Below are positions 2 to 18,134 of a stretch of DNA of 64,000 nucleotides, piece after piece; position 1 is the first letter of the stretch, and every line of letters starts with the position of its first letter. Source of the stretch: an uncultured Pseudomonadales bacterium (GTDB taxonomy: Bacteria > Patescibacteriota > Microgenomatia > UBA1400 > PJMF01); the NCBI GenBank assembly GCA_964406075.1, contig CAYOQI010000002.1:96565-160564 (forward strand), in the 5' to 3' direction. The position numbers were made by a program, and so were the translations under genes. The notes under the pieces are model-generated. The model saw only the letters and a program-made list of their open reading frames with translations. It was not told the origin of the DNA and searched no databases.

Positions 2-460
2 GAAGCTGGAACAGATAAAACTACGCAAATTCAATCTCAACTTGAACACCTAACTCCAGATGTACGAGTACTTCAGTTTACAAAAGTGTTGTCGCCAGAT
101 ATTTTCCTGAGTACTTCCTTTGCTACTTCTCGTCCTGCGGATGAAACGGGTGAACATCATCACGTTCATGAAGACTATCAAATGTATTGGTATGAGTCAG
201 AACAACCACATGATGTAAATAAAGTGATTCAAGTCATTCGAAACACTCCCAAAGAAATTGTTCGAATTAAAGGAGTAGTTTTTTCTTCAGATAGTACCAA
301 CTCAAAAGTACTCATCCAACGTGTTGGATCACGCACCACAACAGACTCAAGTGAGTGGGGAAGTGATGAGAAAAAACAAACAACTATTCTCTTCATCGGA
401 AAATCATTTGATGAGGATGAGCTAAAAAAACAGCTTGATACTACAAAAAGTACGATTTAA
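2..460 (+). CDS. CobW/G3E-family GTPase metallochaperone, C-terminal portion (5' end outside window)
   Basis: Frame is open from base 2. His-rich linker GEHHHVHEDY is followed by a CobW_C-like segment (EIVRIKGVV...TTILFIGKSFDEDELKKQL). The listed ORF 86..460 is only the internal-Met part. Confidence 0.6.
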   Translation, partial: EAGTDKTTQIQSQLEHLTPDVRVLQFTKVLSPDIFLSTSFATSRPADETGEHHHVHEDYQMYWYESEQPHDVNKVIQVIRNTPKEIVRIKGVVFSSDSTNSKVLIQRVGSRTTTDSSEWGSDEKKQTTILFIGKSFDEDELKKQLDTTKSTI

Positions 461-472
461 TTTCTAAAAATT

Positions 473-1801
473 TTAGTACCTGTATTGATCCGCTTTAAAT
501 GGTCCTTTATTTGGAACACCTAAATATTCAGATTGATCCTTCGAGAGTTTCGTTAATTTTGCTCCCACGTGTTCTAAATGCAAAGCTGCTACTTTTTCAT
601 CAAGATGTTTTGGTAAAACATAGACACCGACAATATACGGTTTGGTATACAGTTCAATTTGAGCAAGAACTTGATTGGTAAAAGAATTTGACATCACGAA
701 TGATGGATGACCCATCGCACATCCTAAATTAACTAATCGCCCTTCAGCTAAGAGAATAATTCGATGTTTGTCAGGCCTGCCCGCCGTGGCGGGGAAAGTA
801 TAGACATCGACCTGTGGTTTTAAGGTTTTCTTTTTAATTCCTTTAAACGCATTCAACTCAGCAACTTGGATCTCCACATCAAAATGGCCAATGTTACAAA
901 CAATCGCCGTGTCTTTCATTTTTTCCATGTGTTCAATGCGAATGACATCTTTGCATCCGGTCGCGGTCACAAAAATATCGACTTCTTTGATCACGTCTTC
1001 AATTCGTTTGACTTCATATCCTTCCATCGCGGCTTGCAACGCACAAATCGGATCGACTTCTGAAACAATCACTCGCGCTCCGTTATTTCGTAAAGACTGA
1101 GCACTTCCCTTACCGACATCTCCAAACCCAGCCACAAAAGCTACTTTTCCAGCCAACATCACATCAGTCGCTCGCCGAATGGCATCAACTAATGACTCAC
1201 GACAGCCGTATAAATTGTCAAACTTTGATTTCGTCACAGAATCGTTCACATTGATGGCTGGAATTTTTAATTTCCCGGTTTTCATCATTTTGTGAAGGTG
1301 ATGCACTCCCGTAGTGGTTTCTTCTGATACGCCTTTGATTTGATCAAGCAATTCAGGATGTTTTTCATGCACCAAACTTGTCAGATCTCCCCCATCATCT
1401 AATAACATATTTGGACCGATCATTTCACCCTTTTTATCAGTGAAAAGTAGCGTTTGTTCCGTACACCACCAGTACTCCTCTTCTGTTTCGCCTTTCCACG
1501 CAAAGACTGGAATTCCTGCTTTCGCAATTGCAGCAGCCGCATGATCTTGAGTCGAAAAAATATTGCAGGAGGCCCATCTGACTTCAGCTCCCAGCTGAAC
1601 CAAAGTTTCAATCAACACTGCGGTTTGAATGGTCATGTGAAGTGAACCGGCGATTCGAGCACCTTTGAGCGGTTTGGATGAAGCGTATTCTTTCCGAATG
1701 GCCATCAGTCCTGGCATCTCATTTTCTGCTAGTTCAATTTCTTGGCGTCCCCATTCTGCCAGTGAAATATCTTTTACCTTGTATGAGTCTGTTTTTTTCA
1801 T
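473..1801 (-). CDS. ahcY: S-adenosyl-L-homocysteine hydrolase
   Basis: 442 aa with full-length AhcY hallmarks: [29 protein letters not shown]-binding [45 protein letters not shown]. Confidence 0.97.
773..790 (-). other. 18-nt GC-rich palindromic in-frame micro-insertion within ahcY (encodes ATAGRP)
   Basis: Sense strand GCCACGGCGGGCAGGCCT is 15/18 G+C inside an AT-rich gene. With the flanking CCC it forms CCCGCC-AC-GGCGGG. These are six extra codons relative to the canonical PQVD-x9-IILLAEGRL spacing. Confidence 0.6.
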
Positions 1802-1808
1802 ATGTTCC

Positions 1809-2756
1809 TTATAGTGAGATATCTTGATGATACTGCTTTTTATAACGATCAGTAATTTGAGATTTTGTTAAAACATGTTCTTGAGTGCCGTGAATTTCTA
1901 CCACAAAAGCAGCTAAGGTTGAACCAAGCTGGGCTGAAGTTTTCAAATCCCAGCCTCGGGTATAACCATATAGAAATCCTGCTCGATAGGCGTCACCAGC
2001 TCCAGTCGGATCAACCACCTTTTTCACTTTGACGGCTTGAATCGATTGTTTTTCCCACTTATTTTGTTTTGAATAAATTTCTGAACCTCTTTCACCTAAA
2101 GTAATGATACAGACTTCGACTGACTGGATAATTTCTTCCGGTGTTAACTCTGTTCGTTCGGACAACATACCCATTTCATAATCATTGAGGATTAAAACTT
2201 CGGCAGCATGAATGCCTTTTCGTAAAGTTTCTTTTGATAACGCAATGACTTGCTGTCCTATATCAAAGTACATTCTTTTTTTTAATTCTAAACACTCATC
2301 AATTTGGACAGCCATTTGTTCTGGATCATGAGCCGAGAGAACAATCAGCACATCTTCGTCAGCAAATTTTTGAATTGTTAAAGACTTCGCATCACCCATT
2401 GCACCAGGATAAAATCCGCCAACTTGGCAATTATTACTATCGGTAATTACGCTAAAAGTAGCCGTTGGTAGGGAAGAGTAATGCACATGATCAATGTTCA
2501 CACCAAGTTTTTCTAACTCTTTCATATACACTCGTTGATCATCACCAATTGAAGAATATAACAGGGGAGTGTCGCCCAGCAAAGCTAGGGAATAAGCAAT
2601 ATTGCCCGCAATCCCGCCTCGACTTCGGATCAATTTTTGAATTAAAACAGAAATAGAAAGTACTCGAAGTTTATCTGGCTGGATCATGTCCGCGAATAAC
2701 CCATCGAAGTTCATGATCTGATCTACCGCCAGTGAGCCAATCAGCACAATTTGCAT
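1809..2756 (-). CDS. adoK: PfkB-family adenosine kinase (mycobacterial AdoK type)
   Basis: 315 aa. The N-terminus [49 protein letters not shown] is colinear with M. tuberculosis AdoK as I recall it. Also has FYPGAMG and the PfkB signature [16 protein letters not shown]. It lies 7 nt upstream of ahcY on the same strand. Confidence 0.75.
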
Positions 2757-2815: not shown

Positions 2816-4468
2816 ATGACTCAGTCCTCCGCTCTAGCAATTTTGAAAACCGGTGCCAATGTTTTTTTAACTGGGAAACCCGGCAGTGGCAAAACCCATA
2901 CGGTGAACCTCTACCGCGATTATCTGCGTGAACATGGAATCGAAACTGCTGTTACGGCTTCGACTGGGATCGCTGCTACACATTTAGGTGGTCAAACGAT
3001 TCATTCATGGAGTGGGATAGGTATTCGAAAAGATCTCACTTCATATGATTTCAATTTGATGCGAGAAAAAAAATATCTACTTCCCCGACTTCAATCAACC
3101 AAAGTGTTAATTATCGATGAGATTTCCATGCTGGATGCTCAGACGCTGGATCAAGTCGATCAAACCCTCCAAGCATTGCGAGAAAGTGATCGACCATTTG
3201 GTGGACTTCAAATTGTATTTGTGGGAGATTTTTTCCAGTTACCACCAGTAGAGAAATTATCGAAATTTGCGTTCGAATCTTCAGCTTGGCAAGAAGCTCA
3301 ACCCGTCATTTGTTATTTATCAGAACAACACCGCCAGGAAGATACACATTTTTTGAGTGTGTTAGATTCGATTCGTACTGGAGAAAATATTTCTCAAGTT
3401 GAGAATGCGTTATCGATGAGAATTATTGAGTCTGATATCGAGACCACTGTCACCCGGCTCTATTCTCACAATGTCGATGTGGATCGAGTGAATGCTGAAT
3501 GGTTGGAACAACTGTCCGGCGAGGAATCTATATTTCAAATGAAATCAAAAGGACAGAAAAATCAGATTGCTTCGCTGATCAAAGGCTGTCTTTCTCCTGA
3601 AACATTGATATTAAAAAAAGGTGCTCGAGTCATGTTTACCAAAAACAATATTGATGAAGGCTTTGTAAATGGCACGATTGGAGAAGTCGTCAGCTTCACA
3701 AAAGAAAACTTTCCTTTGGTGCGAACAACTGAAGGAAGCATGATCGAAGTTCAACCAATGGAGTGGGTGATTGAGGAAAATGAAAAAAAAATAGCCAGTA
3801 TTTCTCAACTTCCCTTACGTTTGGCTTGGGCGATCACAGTGCACAAAAGCCAAGGGATGACGATTGATTCGGCACTGATTGATCTGTCTCGAACTTTTGA
3901 ATATGGCCAAGGATATGTTGCCATTTCACGAGTCCGGACATTATCAGGACTGTATTTAATTGGCTTTAATGAAATGGCATTAAAGGTCCATCCAAAAATT
4001 CAAGAAGTTGATACTCAGTTTAAAACGAAATCTCAAAACGCAGAAAAAAGACTCAGTCAGTATTCTGACAGCGACATCGCCACCAAGCACAAAAATTTCA
4101 TCATTGCTTCGGAAGGAAGTCTCAAAAAAATTGAAGTGAAAAAACCAAAACCAAAAACTGAATACGATGGTAGTACCTATGAAGCCACTCTCGCATTGTT
4201 TAAACAAGGAAAGGTACTCACTGAGATTGCCATAACCCGCGATTTAACCTTAGGAACTATCTTAGGACATATTGAAAAATTGCACCAAAATGCTCAAATT
4301 GAAAAAAAAGAACTCCAATCACATGTTCCTGATTATCTCCGTAAAGACTTGCCTAAAATTCGCAAAGTATTTAAAAAACTCGGTTCCGAAAAACTTTCAC
4401 CAGTATTTGAGTCATTCAAAGGAAAGTATTCGTACGAAGAATTAAAATTGGCAAGAATTATGATGTGA
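2816..4468 (+). CDS. PIF1/RecD-like SF1B DNA helicase with C-terminal HTH-like tail
   Basis: Walker A GKPGSGKTH, Walker B LIIDEISM, VGDFFQLPPV, AITVHKSQGMT. Start moved from GTG 2732 to ATG 2816 (MTQSSALAILK), which has a TAAAAT box 7 nt upstream. Confidence 0.8.
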   Translation: MTQSSALAILKTGANVFLTGKPGSGKTHTVNLYRDYLREHGIETAVTASTGIAATHLGGQTIHSWSGIGIRKDLTSYDFNLMREKKYLLPRLQSTKVLIIDEISMLDAQTLDQVDQTLQALRESDRPFGGLQIVFVGDFFQLPPVEKLSKFAFESSAWQEAQPVICYLSEQHRQEDTHFLSVLDSIRTGENISQVENALSMRIIESDIETTVTRLYSHNVDVDRVNAEWLEQLSGEESIFQMKSKGQKNQIASLIKGCLSPETLILKKGARVMFTKNNIDEGFVNGTIGEVVSFTKENFPLVRTTEGSMIEVQPMEWVIEENEKKIASISQLPLRLAWAITVHKSQGMTIDSALIDLSRTFEYGQGYVAISRVRTLSGLYLIGFNEMALKVHPKIQEVDTQFKTKSQNAEKRLSQYSDSDIATKHKNFIIASEGSLKKIEVKKPKPKTEYDGSTYEATLALFKQGKVLTEIAITRDLTLGTILGHIEKLHQNAQIEKKELQSHVPDYLRKDLPKIRKVFKKLGSEKLSPVFESFKGKYSYEELKLARIMM

Positions 4469-6002: not shown

Positions 6003-6162
6003 TTTATCCTCTTTACCAATTTCAATTCAAACAGCCTTACATTCCTAATTAACTTCAGAAAACTATATCCCCTTTAACACCCTTCAGCACTCTCCAGACA
6101 AACCTGCTATACTGAATACAGATTATTGTGATTAGACAAGAAAAACAGAATGGCTGGATGAC

Positions 6163-6579
6163 ATGACACGACTCAATCGATTTGGCTACTCAGGCAAACC
6201 TCTTTACCAAAAACTTGGGATTAACCACGCTTCATTAGTGACTTTAATGAATGAACCCGAAGAATATTTTGATTTGCTGCAACTTTCCCCTTCAGATTTA
6301 AATAAACCGAGTGATGGTCAAAAACCAAACATCGTGCATATTTTTGTAAAAACTCAAAAAGAATTAGAAAAAAAACTTCCTACCCTGAAAACATCGATTG
6401 ATCCTGCTGGAATGATCTGGGTCTCCTGGCCGAAGAAAAGCTCGACCAAAGCCGGTGATATCACCGAAGACACGATTCGAACTTTTGCCTTGAAAACTGG
6501 ATTGGTTGATGTCAAAGTCTGTTCTTTGAGTGACATGTGGTCAGGGCTGAAACTCGTCATTCGAGTCAAAGATCGCTAA
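6163..6579 (+). CDS. DUF3052-like protein
   Basis: 138 aa. The N-terminus GYSGKPLYQKLGI resembles DUF3052. A TGCTATACT box lies at 6105..6113. Confidence 0.5.
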   Translation: MTRLNRFGYSGKPLYQKLGINHASLVTLMNEPEEYFDLLQLSPSDLNKPSDGQKPNIVHIFVKTQKELEKKLPTLKTSIDPAGMIWVSWPKKSSTKAGDITEDTIRTFALKTGLVDVKVCSLSDMWSGLKLVIRVKDR

Positions 6580-7891: not shown

Positions 7892-8050
7892 GTGAAGAAT
7901 CCCGTTGTGATCATCAATGCTTCTCAAAAGACCTCCAAACATTTAACCTGATCCGCTATTTCTCTTTTCAACATGTGTATTACACTGCCTACTGACTTAT
8001 ATCACCTTAATACGCTACAATTCCCACAGTTATTTCTCATTTTTCCATTT

Positions 8051-8599
8051 ATGACCACTTCTCCTCTTTCCCTTTTGCCAGAATATAGTGAAAAAGCCTA
8101 CCGTCAAGATTATTCAAGTCAACCTGAGATTGAGGGTGTAAAACACCTCGACATTCGAAATTTTTTAAATGAAGAAGGCGATTTTTCTGAACTTTTCCGC
8201 TTCGATGAATCTGGACATTTGGAAATCATGCCCGACTTCCAACTTCGTCAAGTCAATCGAACAACAATTTTTCCTCAAGCAATCAAAGCTTGGCATTTTC
8301 ACCATAAACAAGATGAAATCTGGTACGTTCCCCCATGTTATCAACTCACCCTTGGTTTATGGGATTTGCGTGAAGATTCTCCAACTAAAAATATGAAGAA
8401 AAAAATCCAACTCGGTGGAGGTGCTTCCAAAGCAGTCTTTATCCCACGTGGTGTTGGTCATGGTGTGGCAAATTTTTCCGCTCACAACGGTCAGCTGTTT
8501 TACTTCGTCAGTCAACAGTTCAATGCGAACGAACCTGATGAGATGAGGCTTCACTGGAACGAGGCTGGAGCTGAGTTCTGGACTCCTGAGCGTGACTGA
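8051..8599 (+). CDS. RmlC-like cupin sugar epimerase (dTDP-4-dehydrorhamnose 3,5-epimerase-like)
   Basis: Cupin motifs GDFSELFR, AWHFHHKQDEIWYV, RGVGHGVANFS. Start is uncertain (ATG 7973 or ATG 8051); 8051 is preferred because the first 26 aa look non-native. Confidence 0.55.
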   Translation: MTTSPLSLLPEYSEKAYRQDYSSQPEIEGVKHLDIRNFLNEEGDFSELFRFDESGHLEIMPDFQLRQVNRTTIFPQAIKAWHFHHKQDEIWYVPPCYQLTLGLWDLREDSPTKNMKKKIQLGGGASKAVFIPRGVGHGVANFSAHNGQLFYFVSQQFNANEPDEMRLHWNEAGAEFWTPERD

Positions 8600-8620
8600 T
8601 CTCATTTTTTCCGGGTCAAT

Positions 8621-9019
8621 ATGAACAAATCCGCCATCAATTCATTTATTCAGAACATGAAAAAAGCTGGAAGTATTACCAAAGCTTCTGAGTGGATGAT
8701 CGAGGGTCGAGGTGACAAAAAAGCTGAGATTAAGTATGTCGGTGTCCTACTGGGAAATGAATGGGAAGAAATTTTTTCTCGAAAAAATAACCTGCTTTTT
8801 CAATTTACGTTAATTGATAAGATTGCCTACCTCGATATTTTACTGGCCAATACTCCCCCTTTTACTAAACTTACTTCTCAAAAATTAACTGAGAGTGACA
8901 AATGGGAAACCATCCTTGGTCAGCTCAGAAATACACTGAAAAAGGATAAACAGGACTTCCTTCATCATCGGGACGCGATCGGGAATCTATATAGCAAAAT
9001 TACAAAACTCCTAAAATAG
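8621..9019 (+). CDS. hypothetical protein
   Basis: 132-aa ORF with no motif recognised. Confidence 0.5.
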   Translation: MNKSAINSFIQNMKKAGSITKASEWMIEGRGDKKAEIKYVGVLLGNEWEEIFSRKNNLLFQFTLIDKIAYLDILLANTPPFTKLTSQKLTESDKWETILGQLRNTLKKDKQDFLHHRDAIGNLYSKITKLLK

Positions 9020-9020
9020 C

Positions 9021-9048
9021 ATCTTCCTGCCATAAAGATCTTTTTTTT
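9021..9048 (+). terminator. Weak intrinsic terminator candidate
   Basis: ATCTT-cctgccata-AAGAT followed by C-T8, immediately after the stop of 8621..9019. Confidence 0.45.
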
Positions 9049-9074
9049 ACACAGGAAATAGGTATACTGAGTAC

Positions 9075-9659
9075 ATGTCAGATACTCCTCCAACTCCAGT
9101 TAAAAAGGAAACGAAAAAAGATGAGCGTATTTCTTGGGATCAGATTGAAGAAGACCGCATGAAGACCGAGGAGACGTTATACGAATGGGAAGCTCCCAAC
9201 CGACCCTTTAAGAAGAGGGATCGAGAATTCTATTCCACGATTGCGGTAATTGTTTTCCTCGTGAGTTTAATTCTACTTTTTGCAGGCCAATTTTTATTGA
9301 TTGCTGTCGTTGTTTCTTTAGCATTCGTCAGCTATGTCCTTGCTTCCGTCCCGCCAGAACAGGTGAAACACAGCATTACTACCCACGGATTACATACGGG
9401 TAATCAATTTTATTTTTGGGAAGAAATGGGACGCTTTTGGTTCACGACCAAATTCAAGCACGACCTACTTCAGATCGAGGTTGCTAAGTTTCCCGGACGA
9501 ATTATTCTCCTTGTTGAGCCGGATGAAAAAATGAAAGTGCGAACAATTTTGACCAAATACCTGGTTCAACAAACTCCACTTCCCACTTTCTTGGATAAAT
9601 CAGCCGACTGGCTACAAGAAAAAGTCCCCTTAGAGAAAATGATCGAGAAGAAACAATAA
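9075..9659 (+). CDS. Two-TM membrane protein with C-terminal PH-like domain (hypothetical)
   Basis: 194 aa. Charged N-terminus, hydrophobic hairpin STIAVIVFLVSLILLFAGQFLLIAVVVSLAFVSYVLA, then a soluble tail. TATACT lies 6 nt upstream of the ATG. Confidence 0.6.
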   Translation: MSDTPPTPVKKETKKDERISWDQIEEDRMKTEETLYEWEAPNRPFKKRDREFYSTIAVIVFLVSLILLFAGQFLLIAVVVSLAFVSYVLASVPPEQVKHSITTHGLHTGNQFYFWEEMGRFWFTTKFKHDLLQIEVAKFPGRIILLVEPDEKMKVRTILTKYLVQQTPLPTFLDKSADWLQEKVPLEKMIEKKQ

Positions 9660-9672
9660 CTTTCCAATTTTC

Positions 9673-9981
9673 ATGTCAACTTCTGAAAAATTAAGTTGCT
9701 CTAATCCTGTTGAGAGATTGAATAAAACAAAAACTGCCTTTATTTTTTGGTGCCCCATTTTGAATATACGATTGGATTACTTAACTAAAAAACACTGTTC
9801 AGCTGAAGAACAATTAGCTTGTCAGCATCTTTTAGCAGGAACAACTTTAAGTGGAATCAATTTTCACGACGTATCAAAAAGTGGCAAATCAAAAGATCAT
9901 GGCGAAGATCTGGAACAGGGGCATTCAGGATCAGATGAAACAAGAACTTATGAAATAAACCGTTTCCGTGATGAAGAATAA
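9673..9981 (+). CDS. hypothetical protein (weak call)
   Basis: 102-aa ORF with no RBS or -10 box nearby and atypical composition. Confidence 0.25.
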   Translation: MSTSEKLSCSNPVERLNKTKTAFIFWCPILNIRLDYLTKKHCSAEEQLACQHLLAGTTLSGINFHDVSKSGKSKDHGEDLEQGHSGSDETRTYEINRFRDEE

Positions 9982-10049
9982 ATTCTGACTGAAATTTTTT
10001 TCTTAACTAACCAGTCAACTGCCAACTATCCAACCAGTTAACTTACATG

Positions 10050-10133
10050 TGCACCTACCAAGAACTTGCCTACCGGCAGGCAGGTCGAACTTGGATCAAC
10101 GGTTCCATCCACCCGCTTGTTTGCCATTCCCAA
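10050..10133 (-). pseudogene. Decayed tRNA-Arg copy / att-like 3'-half remnant with a 20-nt insertion in the T-loop
   Basis: The 3' half GGAACCGTTGATCCAAGTTCGA[20 nt]TTCTTGGTAGGTGCA matches the adjacent tRNA at 36/37 positions. There is no complementary 5' acceptor strand and no foldable D or anticodon arm. Confidence 0.7.
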
Positions 10134-10150
10134 GTCCTGACGAAGAAGAG

Positions 10151-10222
10151 TGCACCCACCAAGAATCGAACTTGGATCAACGGTTCCGCAAACCGCTATT
10201 CTATCCATTAAACTATGGGTGC
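10151..10222 (-). tRNA. tRNA-Arg (anticodon GCG)
   Basis: Manual fold, 72 nt: GCACCCA/TGGGTGC acceptor, anticodon arm GCGGT-TTGCGGA-ACCGT, T-arm CCAAG-TTCGATT-CTTGG. No encoded CCA. Confidence 0.85.
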
Positions 10223-10280
10223 TTACAGGTATTTTACCAAATTTCCCTGAAATTAACCGATGAACTATTCAACCAATGAA

Positions 10281-13200
10281 CTACTTTTCTGGTTTCATCC
10301 ATGTGTAATACAACACGGGGATGAAAAGTAACATGATTGTACTGGAAACTAACAATCCTGAGATAATAGCTCCACCGAGACCTCTCCACAATGGATCAGC
10401 AATAGTGATCGGAAGTAGCCCAAATATAGTACAGACTTTGGTGAGAATGATTGGTTCCAAACGACTGGCCCCTGCATCCGCAATCGAATCTTCAAAATTC
10501 ATACCTTCTTTTTGATTCAAATTAATTTTGTCTACGATAAACATTGAGTTGGTCACCACAATTCCGAATAAGGAAAGAACACCAATCATGGCTGGGAAAG
10601 ATAAGGCTGTACCAGTCAACGCAAAAGCTAAGAACACTGATGAAACTGCTAAAGGAATGACGATTAATACAATCGCAGCCTGACGGAATGAGCCAAACTG
10701 TACGACCATCGTGATCATAATGAGAACCGCAGACAACACCATGGCTTGTAAAATCGACTGAATCGATTTTGCATTTTCATCATTCACTCCTCCTGTTTTC
10801 CATTCATATCCATTTGGAAGTTCAATTGACTGGGTGAATTCTTGAAGCTTGGTATTTTCTTCTGAGATGGAAGAACCTGGACGCACTGCCGCAGTCACAG
10901 TGAGTGAACGTTGGAAATCTTCGCGAGTAATACTAGTTGGATTGACTTCTGTTTCTAATCTGCCGAGTGACATCAATGGAACGCTTTGACCTTGAGGATT
11001 TGTTACCGACAATTGAGATAATCCCTCAATATCAGCTGAACCATCATGTAAGCGCAGAACAACTTCCGTTTCCTGATCAGCATTTTCTGATAGTTTTAAT
11101 TCGTCCAATGTGAAGCCACTAGCATAGAGTCGAAGAGCAAATCCAAGAGTATCAGCACTAATCCCATTTTCCGTTAACTTGGTTGTATCTGGAATAAAGA
11201 CGACTTTACTGGTTCCTTCTTTGACCGATTTATTGACGTTCGTTAAGCCTTCTTGTTGGGATAAGAACTCTACTACCCGATCAGCTTGATGATTCAGCTC
11301 TGACAAATCTTCTCCGAGTAATCCAATTTGAATATCGGCTCCTGCTGGAGGTCCACCAGATTGTTCGATGATCGAAACTGTACCATTTGGATAATTCTCA
11401 AATTCTTTTCTGAGTTCCTCAGCAATATCATAGGAAGCGATTGATCGCTCTTCCAAATCACTCAATCGCAGAGTAAAGGTTGCCAAATTACTGCCATCTC
11501 CTCCACCACCAAATCCATCCCCAGCGCCTCTTCCAACATCAGCAGTCACATAGTGAAGTTCTGTGGTATTTCGTAATTGATTCAACACATTCATTGCTTC
11601 AGCTTGAGTACGTTCTTGAGTAGTGCCTGCTGGCAATTCAAGTTGGACAAATAATTGTTCTACATCAGTTTTAGGAAAAAATTCATTTTTGACAAAACCT
11701 AAAGGAAGCAAGGAAAAACTAAAGATGGAATAGCCGACCACAGCAATCAATACATTTCTTCGTGCTGATTTACTCTTTAAAATTCTTGCAATGAATCGTC
11801 GATAACGATCTGCAAAAGCTTCAACATCAATGACTCCATTATTAATAAGACGATTTAAAAATGAGCCTGTTCGTTTTGCTCTCGAACTTGAACGACGAGC
11901 TAGAGCTTGTTGAATAACTGCTTGAGTTCTATTTTTGAATGCTGGAAATACTCGAAGCAGAACCAAAGTAGAAATGACGTACACAAACAAAGCGATTGGG
12001 AAGATCGGACTCTTGAATGTCAAAAATCCGACTACAGCTAAGACACTTACAAACAGGACAATCTTAAAAAAGGTCGCAAGCCTCGATGGAATGACTGGTT
12101 TGAGCAACACAATCATTAAAGGTAACGTGATTAAAACAGCTATTGCAGTTGAAGAAATCATTGTCACGGTCACAACAATTGGAATCGGTTTGATAAACTC
12201 ACCAATAATTCCTGAAGTAATAAGCAAAGGAACAAAGGACCAAATAGTTGTCAACGTCGTTGACCAAATCGGAACAATCGTATCTTTCCAAACTAAAATC
12301 CCAGTCTCAAGCGGAGTAAATCGTCCAGAACGATAATAAGTTGTCATTGCTGATACCACCACAATCGTGTCATCAACGAGTAAACCTAGTGCTAAAAGAA
12401 ATGCAAACAAAGATAAGAAATTAATTGACATCCCAAAGACTTGCATCAAGAAAAAGGCTGACAAAAAGGTAAGTGGAACAGTTAAAGATGAAATTAAGGC
12501 CTGACGTAAACCCAAGAAAAGAAGCAACGTTCCCATGACCAATAAAATAGTTGTTCGGAACTCCCCAACTAAGTGAGTAAACTGCTCCACAATTTCTTCA
12601 CTGGCATTTGAGAGAGTGATGATTTCATACCCTTCTCCGTTTTCTGCCATAAATTCCTCAACTGCCACTTTGACATCTTCCCCGGCGGCATCAATATCAG
12701 TACCGACTGTTTTAAAGATAGAAAAAGTAACACCTTGGCGAGCTTCTTGATCGGGTGTTGCCACATATGATAATGCTTGTCCTGGCTTTGATCGTAACGC
12801 CACACTAGCAATGTCAGACAACGCGAGTGTTTTTCCTTGTACAGTTATTTGCAAACTGCGAATGTCATCTACTGTTTCAATCTCAGGATCTATTGTTAAT
12901 GCAAATGTATTTGCACCTGTTTCAACTGTTCCAGCTGGCAATGAGGCACGTGCTCTCTTAAGTTGTTGAGAGAGTTGGAAAGGATTGAGTCCATACTGAG
13001 CCAATTTGTTCGAATCGACTTCTACAATGACTTCTTGCACATCAAATCCAGAGGTACTCACTCGATCTATTGAACCCACATCTTCGATGTGATCTCTGAG
13101 ATCATGTACGGTATTCATGAGATCAGGGAAACTTTTTTCAGTTACTAAGGCAAATTGCCAAATTGGCTGATCTTCAAAATCAAGTGCTGTTACTGAAGGA

Positions 13201-13652
13201 TCTTGAGCGTCTTCTGGCAAATCACGTACCGAATCAACTTTTGATTGCACATCATCGCGAGCTTTATCTCGACTTACAGTTGAAAGGAACTGAAGTGTGA
13301 CAATTGAGACGTTATCTCTGGAATTAGAAGTAATGGTATCAATGTCTTTGAGTGAACGCAGTGCATCTTCAATTGGAATCGTAATCAAACTTTCTACGTC
13401 GGTAGGCCCTGCTCCGGGAAGAACTGTCACGACTGTTACGATAGGAATTTCAACTTCTGGGTTTAATCTTTTGGGCAACTGTGTATAGGCAACTGTTCCA
13501 AGTAAAGCAATTGTAATAATCAGAAGAATCACAAGTCGAATATTTTGGATAAAACGTCCAACAAGACTATCCTTCAATTTAGGATCAAAAGTTAATCGAT
13601 CCAAATAGGATTTAGACTCAGTTGGTAATTTCGTTCGTTTTTCTGCTGCCAT
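10281..13652 (-). CDS. RND-superfamily efflux transporter (AcrB/AcrD/AcrF family)
   Basis: 1123 aa with 12-TM RND topology, two large extracytoplasmic loops and the typical N-terminus FIQNIRLVILLIITIALLG. It follows an MFP gene. Confidence 0.9.
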   Translation of the reverse strand: MAAEKRTKLPTESKSYLDRLTFDPKLKDSLVGRFIQNIRLVILLIITIALLGTVAYTQLPKRLNPEVEIPIVTVVTVLPGAGPTDVESLITIPIEDALRSLKDIDTITSNSRDNVSIVTLQFLSTVSRDKARDDVQSKVDSVRDLPEDAQDPSVTALDFEDQPIWQFALVTEKSFPDLMNTVHDLRDHIEDVGSIDRVSTSGFDVQEVIVEVDSNKLAQYGLNPFQLSQQLKRARASLPAGTVETGANTFALTIDPEIETVDDIRSLQITVQGKTLALSDIASVALRSKPGQALSYVATPDQEARQGVTFSIFKTVGTDIDAAGEDVKVAVEEFMAENGEGYEIITLSNASEEIVEQFTHLVGEFRTTILLVMGTLLLFLGLRQALISSLTVPLTFLSAFFLMQVFGMSINFLSLFAFLLALGLLVDDTIVVVSAMTTYYRSGRFTPLETGILVWKDTIVPIWSTTLTTIWSFVPLLITSGIIGEFIKPIPIVVTVTMISSTAIAVLITLPLMIVLLKPVIPSRLATFFKIVLFVSVLAVVGFLTFKSPIFPIALFVYVISTLVLLRVFPAFKNRTQAVIQQALARRSSSRAKRTGSFLNRLINNGVIDVEAFADRYRRFIARILKSKSARRNVLIAVVGYSIFSFSLLPLGFVKNEFFPKTDVEQLFVQLELPAGTTQERTQAEAMNVLNQLRNTTELHYVTADVGRGAGDGFGGGGDGSNLATFTLRLSDLEERSIASYDIAEELRKEFENYPNGTVSIIEQSGGPPAGADIQIGLLGEDLSELNHQADRVVEFLSQQEGLTNVNKSVKEGTSKVVFIPDTTKLTENGISADTLGFALRLYASGFTLDELKLSENADQETEVVLRLHDGSADIEGLSQLSVTNPQGQSVPLMSLGRLETEVNPTSITREDFQRSLTVTAAVRPGSSISEENTKLQEFTQSIELPNGYEWKTGGVNDENAKSIQSILQAMVLSAVLIMITMVVQFGSFRQAAIVLIVIPLAVSSVFLAFALTGTALSFPAMIGVLSLFGIVVTNSMFIVDKINLNQKEGMNFEDSIADAGASRLEPIILTKVCTIFGLLPITIADPLWRGLGGAIISGLLVSSTIMLLFIPVLYYTWMKPEK

Positions 13653-18026: not shown

Positions 18027-18062
18027 AAATGAATTCTATCACTTCTACGTTTTATAATTTTG

Positions 18063-18134
18063 TGCCCTCGGCGGGAATCGAACCCACATCTTAAATTTCG
18101 GAAACTCACATTCTATCCATTGAACTACGAGGGC
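18063..18134 (-). tRNA. tRNA-Arg (anticodon CCG)
   Basis: Manual fold, 72 nt: GCCCTCG/CGAGGGC acceptor, anticodon arm TGAGT-TTCCGAA-ATTTA, T-arm GTGGG-TTCGATT-CCCGC. No encoded CCA. Confidence 0.85.

Follow-up and report, generated by a model that had tools for sequence, protein, structure and literature searches.

A dead 3' half of tRNA-Arg(GCG), split in its T-loop by a dispersed 20-bp palindrome, beside the intact gene in a bacterium of the candidate phyla radiation

The window analyzed here, a stretch of 64,000 nucleotides (nt) of contig CAYOQI010000002.1 (positions 96,565 to 160,564), carries an intact gene for the transfer RNA (tRNA) tRNA-Arg(GCG) and, close behind it, a second copy of the 3' half of this gene. 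The T-loop of the second copy is split by a GC-rich, imperfect palindrome of 20 bp. The same architecture was present in two other Microgenomatia lineages, the closest relative retrieved had the gene without the second copy, and the palindrome was found dispersed in other genomes. On balance, we consider the second copy to be a non-functional relic, which probably arose by a short duplicative rearrangement and was then hit by the palindrome in its T-loop.

ARAGORN made a single tRNA-Arg(GCG) call on the minus strand (10150..10222), and the Rfam tRNA model RF00005 matched 10151..10222 with 64.9 bits (E = 3e-13). The second copy, a direct repeat, agreed with the live gene at 36 of the 37 positions from G36 to the discriminator base, and this identity began abruptly at G36. 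A preliminary description, made from the letters of the window, had reported the second copy and its 36/37 match correctly to the base; the spacer measured 44 nt. The first block of the repeat, GGAACCGTTGATCCAAGTTCGA, was found exactly twice in 64 kb (10187..10166 and 10106..10085), the chance expectation being 0. The second block, TTCTTGGTRGGTGCA, occurred at 10165..10151 and 10064..10050, and its two copies differed by one base (G vs A). The distal one, reading TTCTTGGTAGGTGCA, covers the T-loop, the 3' strand of the T-stem, the 3' strand of the acceptor and the discriminator. A repeat search recovered the same two blocks, with start-to-start spacings of 81 and 101 nt. No third copy of either block was present anywhere in the 64 kb, and a third att copy, or a tandem accretion of islands, was rejected accordingly.

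The insert described earlier in the T-loop of the second copy was also present. In the tRNA sense it reads CCTGCCTGCCGGTAGGCAAG (10084..10065), and it separates positions 58 and 59 of the T-loop. The whole region was identical in L001, an independent Logan assembly of run SRR12762304.

The second copy, a dead 3' half rather than a tRNA with an intron, cannot give rise to a tRNA. It gave no Rfam match at E<=10, where only the intact gene was matched; the covariance model thus folded it into neither a bona fide nor an intron-bearing tRNA. ARAGORN made no call on it, whether the 20-mer was kept or removed, at the default threshold or, with the intron option off, at 80%. When introns were allowed, the default threshold again yielded no call, and lowering it to 70% produced spurious ones only. 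The expectation of a single functional tRNA was therefore borne out by ARAGORN, which called the intact gene alone, and by Rfam.

No 5' half accompanied the remnant. In agreement with the preliminary description, the spacer held no GCACCTA-like strand complementary to the 3' acceptor strand TAGGTGC, and its alignments with tRNA positions 1-35, local and anchored, were no better than those of shuffles (p = 0.68 and 0.18). A decayed full-length tRNA duplicate was rejected; the AATGG and AGCGG likenesses seen by eye in the spacer were not significant. An archaeal origin with a bulge-helix-bulge intron or a split tRNA, prompted by the GCG anticodon, was also rejected, as the window is bacterial (AcrB, LytR and relatives in the candidate phyla radiation, CPR).

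The tRNA genes of Patescibacteria often contain group I introns in the anticodon loop, including at 35/36, and standard tRNA finders miss them (PMC13011429). The phylum and the breakpoint at 35/36 are shared with the present case. On the other hand, these introns are about 250 nt long, compared with spacers of 14-44 nt at our loci, and here an intron was lacking and the junction was not preceded by a U. Nor is a 5' exon shared, as the intact tRNA-Arg gene is complete on its own. Rfam gave no Intron_gpI match in the window region or in L005, L002, L006, L077, L075 and L010. This lack of support, together with spacers much too small for such an intron, led us to reject a group I intron remnant.

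L005 and L077 (the latter from sample ERZ24842345), two Microgenomatia contigs that are more distant, contained a tRNA gene, a short spacer and a 3' half split by a hairpin in the T-loop. In L005, read in the tRNA sense, the tRNA (1838..1764) was followed by a spacer of 18 nt, GGAACCATTGATCCAAGTTC (1745..1726), a 33-nt hairpin and GATTCTTGGTGGGCGCACCAGA (1692..1671). The hairpin, TCCTCCTACGC...CGGAGGACTGTAG, sits at T-loop position 56/57. In L077, the tRNA (3274..3346) was followed by a spacer of 14 nt, GCGGAACCGTTGATCCAAGTTC (3361..3382), a 75-nt hairpin and GATTCTTGGTGGGCGCAC (3458..3475). This hairpin belonged to the same CCTCC.../...GGAGGAC family as that of L005 and occupied the same 56/57 site. 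The 3' halves of the two contigs began at position 34 or 36. The acceptor base of each remnant matched its own lineage (T70 in the window, C70 in L005 and L077). No island or integrase was present at any of the three remnant loci.

L005 and L077 both had, in addition, a 13-nt 5' fragment, GCGCCCATAGTTT, 76-118 nt upstream of the intact gene. The fragment ended at the boundary between D-stem and D-loop (13/14), and a hairpin came directly after it. A promoter-like -10 element stood in front of the 5' fragment and not in front of the intact gene.

In a tree of the neighbor protein, the three positive lineages did not form a clade: the window grouped with L010 and with L015, whose neighbor protein is 89% identical, and L005 grouped with L075 and L076. 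The members of this set that reached the downstream flank of the tRNA (L010, L075 and L076) were all without a remnant. As the positive lineages are not grouped, the layout is either recurrent or old with many losses, and the near-perfect identity of the remnants to the live gene suggests young age or homogenization. There were only three positive lineages, with two of the loci supplied by a search that favored identical tRNA sequence.

The sequence of tRNA-Arg(GCG) was itself distributed unevenly. It was near-identical in L005, L077 and the window, though the neighbor protein was only 42-56% identical, and it differed at many positions in closer relatives (L075, L076, L016 and L078), L078 having a different type of D-arm. 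This patchy similarity hints at gene replacement or transfer, in a sample biased by two scans that demanded an exact 22-mer.

Other tRNA fragments and hairpins were seen in these contigs. L005 had a 24-nt 5' fragment of tRNA-Arg(CCG) about 590 nt upstream of the intact gene, with an open reading frame (ORF) of about 100 residues in between (1343..1320 and 726..653). Hairpins of the CCTCC...GGAGGAC family also lay just after tRNA-Ser(CGA) and 14 nt after tRNA-Arg(CCG) in this contig, which had four of them in 1.4 kb, all at tRNA genes or fragments. In L002, a 15-nt copy of the 3' end of tRNA-Ser, CCCACCCTCTCCGCT (6041..6025, minus strand), was found about 130 nt behind the gene (6259..6174). 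It was directly preceded by a perfect 7-bp hairpin, CCCAGGT-GCGATAGCA-ACCTGGG, at the T-loop position. L075 had a small ORF of GIY-YIG / T5orf172 type, homing-endonuclease-like, at 2006..2269, just downstream of its tRNA-Arg(GCG)/tRNA-Ser(CGA) pair, and a transfer-messenger RNA gene at 68..495.

The synteny comparison called for in the preliminary description was made with L010, the closest relative retrieved. Its neighbor protein was 79% identical, and its four upstream genes were the same and in the same order. The 3' end of its tRNA abutted unrelated sequence, and no second copy was present anywhere in its 4.1 kb. The roughly 400 nt between the tRNA and the gene of a 194-residue protein were not homologous between the window and L010. 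The sequences past the remnant and past the L010 tRNA aligned too weakly to tell which of the two copies holds the original position.

Remnants were counted at the loci retrieved through tRNA-Arg(GCG) or the neighbor gene that contained the tRNA and its downstream flank. Besides L010, none was present in L002, L003, L004/L007, L006, L016-L023, L075, L076 and L078. An identical 72-nt tRNA-Arg(GCG) gene was present in L002, L004/L007 and L006. Matches of 11-13 nt far from the tRNA in L003 and L004/L007 were chance matches inside coding genes.

The palindrome was not a local oddity: the same sequence occurred at non-homologous sites in the window, in L077 and in viral contigs. Its consensus is C[T/C]TGCCTACCGGCAGGCAGG. 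In L077 the 18-nt core was identical (3173..3190), and the two following bases were shared too (to 3192). This copy stood upstream of the tRNA and in the opposite orientation relative to it, just after the small hairpin that trails the 5' fragment. The motif ATCCACC (GGTGGAT on the minus strand, where it forms the 3' end of the spacer; window 10107..10113, L077 3211..3217) lay 20-22 nt from the palindrome in both genomes, and the sequence in between was not clearly homologous. Possibly the window and L077 share a block of more than 20 bp; alternatively, an inverted and decayed remnant may be present in L077.

The exact 18-mer was found in 26 stretches of IMG/VR viral contigs with unrelated flanks. 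A control, the reversed 18-mer of the same composition and symmetry, was found in 2. The GC content of the 18-mer loci ranged from 0.33 to 0.70 (0.40 or less in 8 of the 26), and some contigs held 2-12 copies. In L083 the palindrome lay in the loop of a terminator-like hairpin, and in L081, L086/L099, L092/L093 and L077 it lay directly beside strong hairpins. Four unrelated viral copies began with CTTGCC (GGCAAG on the other strand), as did the window copy.

The last observation bears on the 7-nt target duplication, CAAGTTC, proposed in the preliminary description. The repeat exists, but the CTTGCC start of the four viral copies indicated that CAAG is part of the element, and the proposed duplication falls. 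The T-loop GATTC was also missing after the second CAAGTTC, which is not expected of a target duplication.

GC-rich palindromes at non-homologous sites in AT-rich genomes are familiar from the repetitive extragenic palindromes and bacterial interspersed mosaic elements (REP/BIME), the miniature inverted-repeat transposable elements (MITEs), the Rickettsia palindromic elements and the GC clusters of yeast mitochondria. The likeness extends to the position of the palindrome near other hairpins and to its insertion in an RNA gene remnant. Members of these families are about 35-150 bp long. The present palindrome is much shorter, occurs once per 64 kb rather than many times per genome, and keeps an identical sequence in contigs that differ widely in GC content; neither a target duplication nor a transposase was seen with it.

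Several further searches of viral contigs led nowhere. The T-arm with an insert (GATCCAAGTTC N10-40 GATTCTTGGT) gave 40 matches, all due to chance (39 in one conserved phage coding gene, and an unrelated one with a 10-nt gap). The hairpin pattern CCTCCT...TTCGGAGGAC gave 93 stretches, which was at or below chance by a rough estimate (17 specified bases, variable gap). A T-arm 21-mer, tried as a candidate attP, hit 51 complete phage tRNA genes of other identities and a partial tRNA-Arg(TCT) copy at a contig end (L036), but no attP for tRNA-Arg(GCG).

Two observations were made in passing on the viral contigs. L102 (IMGVR_UViG_3300025106_000007) contained a perfect tandem array of 11 copies of a 21-nt unit, CCATGCCTACCGGCAGGCAGG, at 3911..4142, reaching the end of the stored locus; perfect arrays of this unit were also present in L101 and L085. 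The L102 array looks like a centromere-like site or a concatemer. L036 (IMGVR_UViG_3300042691_048764) had at 42..62 a partial 3' copy of tRNA-Arg(TCT), 42 nt from the contig end and without a 5' half. It resembles a usual att site at the edge of a prophage and has no connection with the CPR case.

The core of the palindrome had also been matched earlier to an insert in ahcY (473..1801, minus strand). The likeness was real at the level of letters. Relative to its L004 orthologue, ahcY has 18 extra nt (776..793; CCCGCCACGGCGGGCAGG in the gene sense, encoding PATAGR, a loop insertion of 6 residues), GC-rich and palindromic. In a hand alignment they agreed with the palindrome at 16 of 18 positions with two gaps, the changes in the arms keeping the pairing, and the core CCTGCC[T/C]GCCG matched at 10 of 11. 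On the other hand, kinship was unproven. Many CPR AhcY proteins have an insertion of 5-6 residues of varied sequence at that site (PATAGR, PPTKDR, PPSAGR, PAKKGQ and others), and in an L010-type genome the same codons are AT-rich (CCACCAACCAAAGACAGA, encoding PPTKDR). The ahcY insertion, found clade-wide at this site, is therefore old, and the case for a recent copy of the palindrome there is weakened.

In the reading that we favor, a short duplicative rearrangement, whose junction fell between anticodon-loop positions 35 and 36, would have placed a second copy of positions 36-73 behind the live gene. The palindrome would be mobile and would favor hairpin loops; it would then have landed in the loop of the T-arm, the only hairpin left in the dead copy. 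The same hit in the working gene would be lethal, hence its appearance only in the dead copy. The tRNA fragment itself would thus be ordinary debris without a function, and the palindrome may be a very small mobile element. A plain tandem duplication, which the preliminary description had also considered, did not hold: the 44-nt spacer sequence was not repeated after the remnant, where the sequence is different, and no head-to-tail repeat of the 3' half plus flank was seen.

A number of observations count against this reading. All three remnants combine a hairpin in the T-loop with a very short spacer, a regularity that could mean function or a single coupled mechanism. They are 97-100% identical to the live gene, although a neutral relic should decay; they would have to be young, or kept by gene conversion or selection. 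The positive lineages are few, and the search that supplied two of them was biased. For an active mobile element the copy number is low: a search of the 64 kb that tolerated 3 mismatches turned up a single copy of the palindrome. Exact matches in cultured phage and plasmid records stayed at chance level. No transposase was noticed among the window ORFs scanned, to which this search was confined. No target duplication accompanied the palindrome; compared with the empty site of the live gene, TTCGA/TTCTTGG, the filled site adds exactly 20 nt. No pair of empty and filled sites was found at one orthologous position, except the live gene and the remnant themselves.

The preliminary description had proposed, as the other possibility beside a tandem duplication, a scar of a lost island. 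A tyrosine integrase would have crossed over in the anticodon loop; the proximal 3' half would come from attP, the distal one would be the displaced original (attR), and the element would have been almost entirely deleted, leaving 44 nt. Partial tRNA genes made in this way, as attR sites of integrative elements, are common and well documented in prokaryotes (PMC9897764). Like the remnant, they are non-functional direct 3' repeats downstream of an intact gene, present in some lineages and absent in close relatives, and the identity from the anticodon loop to the 3' end of the gene is that of known attL/attR pairs. The DNA just past the tRNA was wholly different between the window and L010, as at an integration hot spot, L010 offers an unoccupied site, and repeated short motifs flank the unit. 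However, the copies in known cases lie 9-23 kb or more apart, with the DNA of the element, including an integrase, between them. Here the spacers were 14, 18 and 44 nt, no integrase lay within about 10 kb, the repeat had no third copy, and there was no island in any of the three lineages. The distal copy, moreover, was interrupted in the T-loop in all three. No attP candidate emerged, a 22-mer of the tRNA 3' half having 0 matches in 2.9 million viral contigs. An integrase would also leave the constant T-loop hairpin and the 13-nt 5' fragment with its hairpin in L005 and L077 unexplained. With so uniform a picture in three lineages, independent and near-complete deletions of islands are not expected. 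We consider an integrase scar unlikely, though it deserves some weight. A bolder proposal, which we hold to be rather unlikely, is that the palindrome, perhaps together with the CCTCC...GGAGGAC hairpins, represents a new ultra-small mobile element of CPR bacteria and of phages with many different hosts that inserts into single-stranded DNA or RNA hairpin loops. The tRNA-Arg layout would then be the footprint of insertion into an essential single-copy tRNA gene, which persists only with a replacement piece next to it.

Destruction of the gene and its replacement may have been coupled, although we regard this as distinctly unlikely. Insertion of a hairpin into the D- or T-loop would have destroyed the tRNA gene, and the only survivors would be cells that gained a replacement piece at the same time. 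Its source could be a small cassette with its own tRNA-Arg, or tRNA DNA inserted illegitimately or with the help of homology. The remnant would be the original and the working gene the patch. Consistent with this, every remnant had its hairpin at a tRNA loop (58/59 in the window, 56/57 in L005 and L077, and 13/14 for the 5' fragments), the promoter-like -10 in L005 and L077 preceded the 5' fragment rather than the intact gene, and the L005 tRNA was almost identical to those of L077 and the window, unlike those of L075 and L076, which are closer on the tree. A precedent of principle is tRNA-dependent lysogeny, in which, according to PMC10865867, the inserted DNA disrupts the host tRNA gene while bringing a working replacement. 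The elements in that case are whole temperate phages with integrases, whereas here the replacement would be a cassette of about 100-250 nt, with no element identified. However, it was the present intact gene that the fragments matched, rather than the tRNAs of the nearest relatives. Neither a donor cassette nor an enzyme is known, a 5' fragment is missing from the window, and the cases are only three, with two loci selected for an identical tRNA sequence. We think it improbable that the remnant and its hairpin are a functional RNA or cis-element that would, for example, terminate transcription, or help to process or stabilize the 3' end, in the interval separating the tRNA from the convergent genes. 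The palindrome was predicted to fold as a 6-bp hairpin inside the retained T-stem, which could still close around the inserted hairpin in the window and in L005. A simple scan flagged the 6-bp stem plus AGTTCTTGGT (a UUCUU run on the tRNA strand) as terminator-like, a stop signal would be useful with ORFs of 102 and 194 residues converging on the tRNA, the palindrome lay at or in terminator-like hairpins of several viral contigs, and the layout recurred in three lineages. Yet the U-run was weak, 0.7 such sites were expected by chance in the region, and the predicted folds of the remnant and of the whole transcript were no stabler than those of shuffles (z = 0.19 to -1.07). No Rfam family was matched, the hairpin sequences differed among the lineages, and the remnant was absent from most relatives, including the closest one retrieved. 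Finally, the 20-mer might derive from a synthetic adapter or linker oligonucleotide or from faulty assembly, with the remnant being a mis-join. The exact 18-mer did occur in very diverse metagenome-derived contigs, including the perfect 11-copy array of a 21-nt unit, and cultured phages and plasmids gave only chance matches. We judge such an artefact very improbable: contiguous tRNA positions 58 and 59 flank the insert, unlike a chimeric join, two assemblies of the run agreed, and the contig of an independent study (L077) has the 20-mer beside the same gene. None of the papers searched prints the 20-mer, and to our knowledge no common adapter has its sequence.

The window comes from a bacterium of the CPR. 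The tRNA 22-mer was found only in metagenome-assembled genomes of Patescibacteria type, the closest named AcrB homologue was from Candidatus Woesebacteria, and one related contig carries the label Microgenomatia UBA1400. An acrB-like gene (10281..13652, minus strand) precedes the tRNA by 60 nt, and from the other side four ORFs on the plus strand (7973..9981) point toward it. Within about 10 kb, Pfam scans of the ORFs revealed no recombinase or integrase, as the preliminary description had stated. The 194-residue ORF (9075..9659) proved a good synteny anchor. Its homologues were directly upstream of, and co-directional with, tRNA-Arg(GCG) or tRNA-Arg(CCG) in L002, L003, L004/L007 and L005, and upstream of tRNA-Arg(GCG) in L016-L023 and L075-L078. 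In the window and L010 the gene and the tRNA converge, unlike in most relatives, where they are co-directional and adjacent; the interval therefore contains an inversion breakpoint. AcrB was uninformative as an anchor, as Woesebacteria-like homologues (67% identity) precede enolase and not the tRNA. Together with the convergence of the 194-residue gene, this indicated two synteny breaks flanking the tRNA (window 9660..10283; compared with L005, L077, L004 and L016).

The CGN codons are decoded by tRNA-Arg(GCG) plus tRNA-Arg(CCG) in the window (10151..10222 and 18062..18134), L002-L007, L016-L023 and L075-L078. No tRNA-Arg gene with an ACG anticodon was seen among the CPR sequences retrieved. 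Most bacteria have an ACG gene, edited to inosine by TadA (PMC3711424).

The extended -10-like element upstream of the tRNA (Table 1) may act as its promoter, judging from its sequence and position. A simple promoter scan did not call it. The motif also precedes tRNA-Arg(GCG) in L003, and TGTTAAAAT takes that position in L006. Four AACCRRTNAACT-like motifs, two on either side, flank the unit of tRNA and remnant, and may be a protein-binding site. Motifs like TGGTAGTTAG also come after the tRNA in L010.

Table 1. Features of the tRNA-Arg(GCG) locus, in coordinates of the window
Feature	Coordinates	Strand	Basis
Intact tRNA-Arg(GCG) gene, no CCA encoded	10222..10151	minus	ARAGORN and Rfam RF00005
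Spacer of 44 nt from tRNA to remnant, without detectable tRNA ancestry	10150..10107	minus	alignments vs shuffles
Remnant part 1: tRNA positions 36-58 (anticodon base 3 to T-loop A58), 22/22 identical	10106..10085	minus	exact repeat, family D1
Palindrome 'P', 20 bp, imperfect, splitting the remnant T-loop; plus strand CTTGCCTACCGGCAGGCAGG	10065..10084		absent at the same position of the intact gene
Remnant part 2: tRNA positions 59-73, 14/15 identical (G67 to A)	10064..10050	minus	repeat family D2
Extended -10-like TGGTAAAAT, 8 nt upstream of the tRNA 5' end	10231..10239	minus	read from sequence
Two copies of AACCAGTNAACT just beyond the remnant	10004..10043		repeat families D3, D4
Two similar copies (AACCRATGAACT) upstream of the tRNA	10255..10283		repeat families D3, D4

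A dead tRNA half alone is routine debris, to be kept out of tRNA gene sets. The parts worth following are the recurrent architecture and the 20-bp palindrome. That at least three Microgenomatia lineages, which together make up no clade, share this odd layout without any island points to a specific process acting on a single-copy, presumably essential tRNA gene in very small genomes. If mobile, the palindrome would be smaller than any such element so far described, and it might disrupt structured RNA genes. Should it prove to be an artefact or a site for protein binding, this would also be worth knowing, since the palindrome sits in public assemblies.

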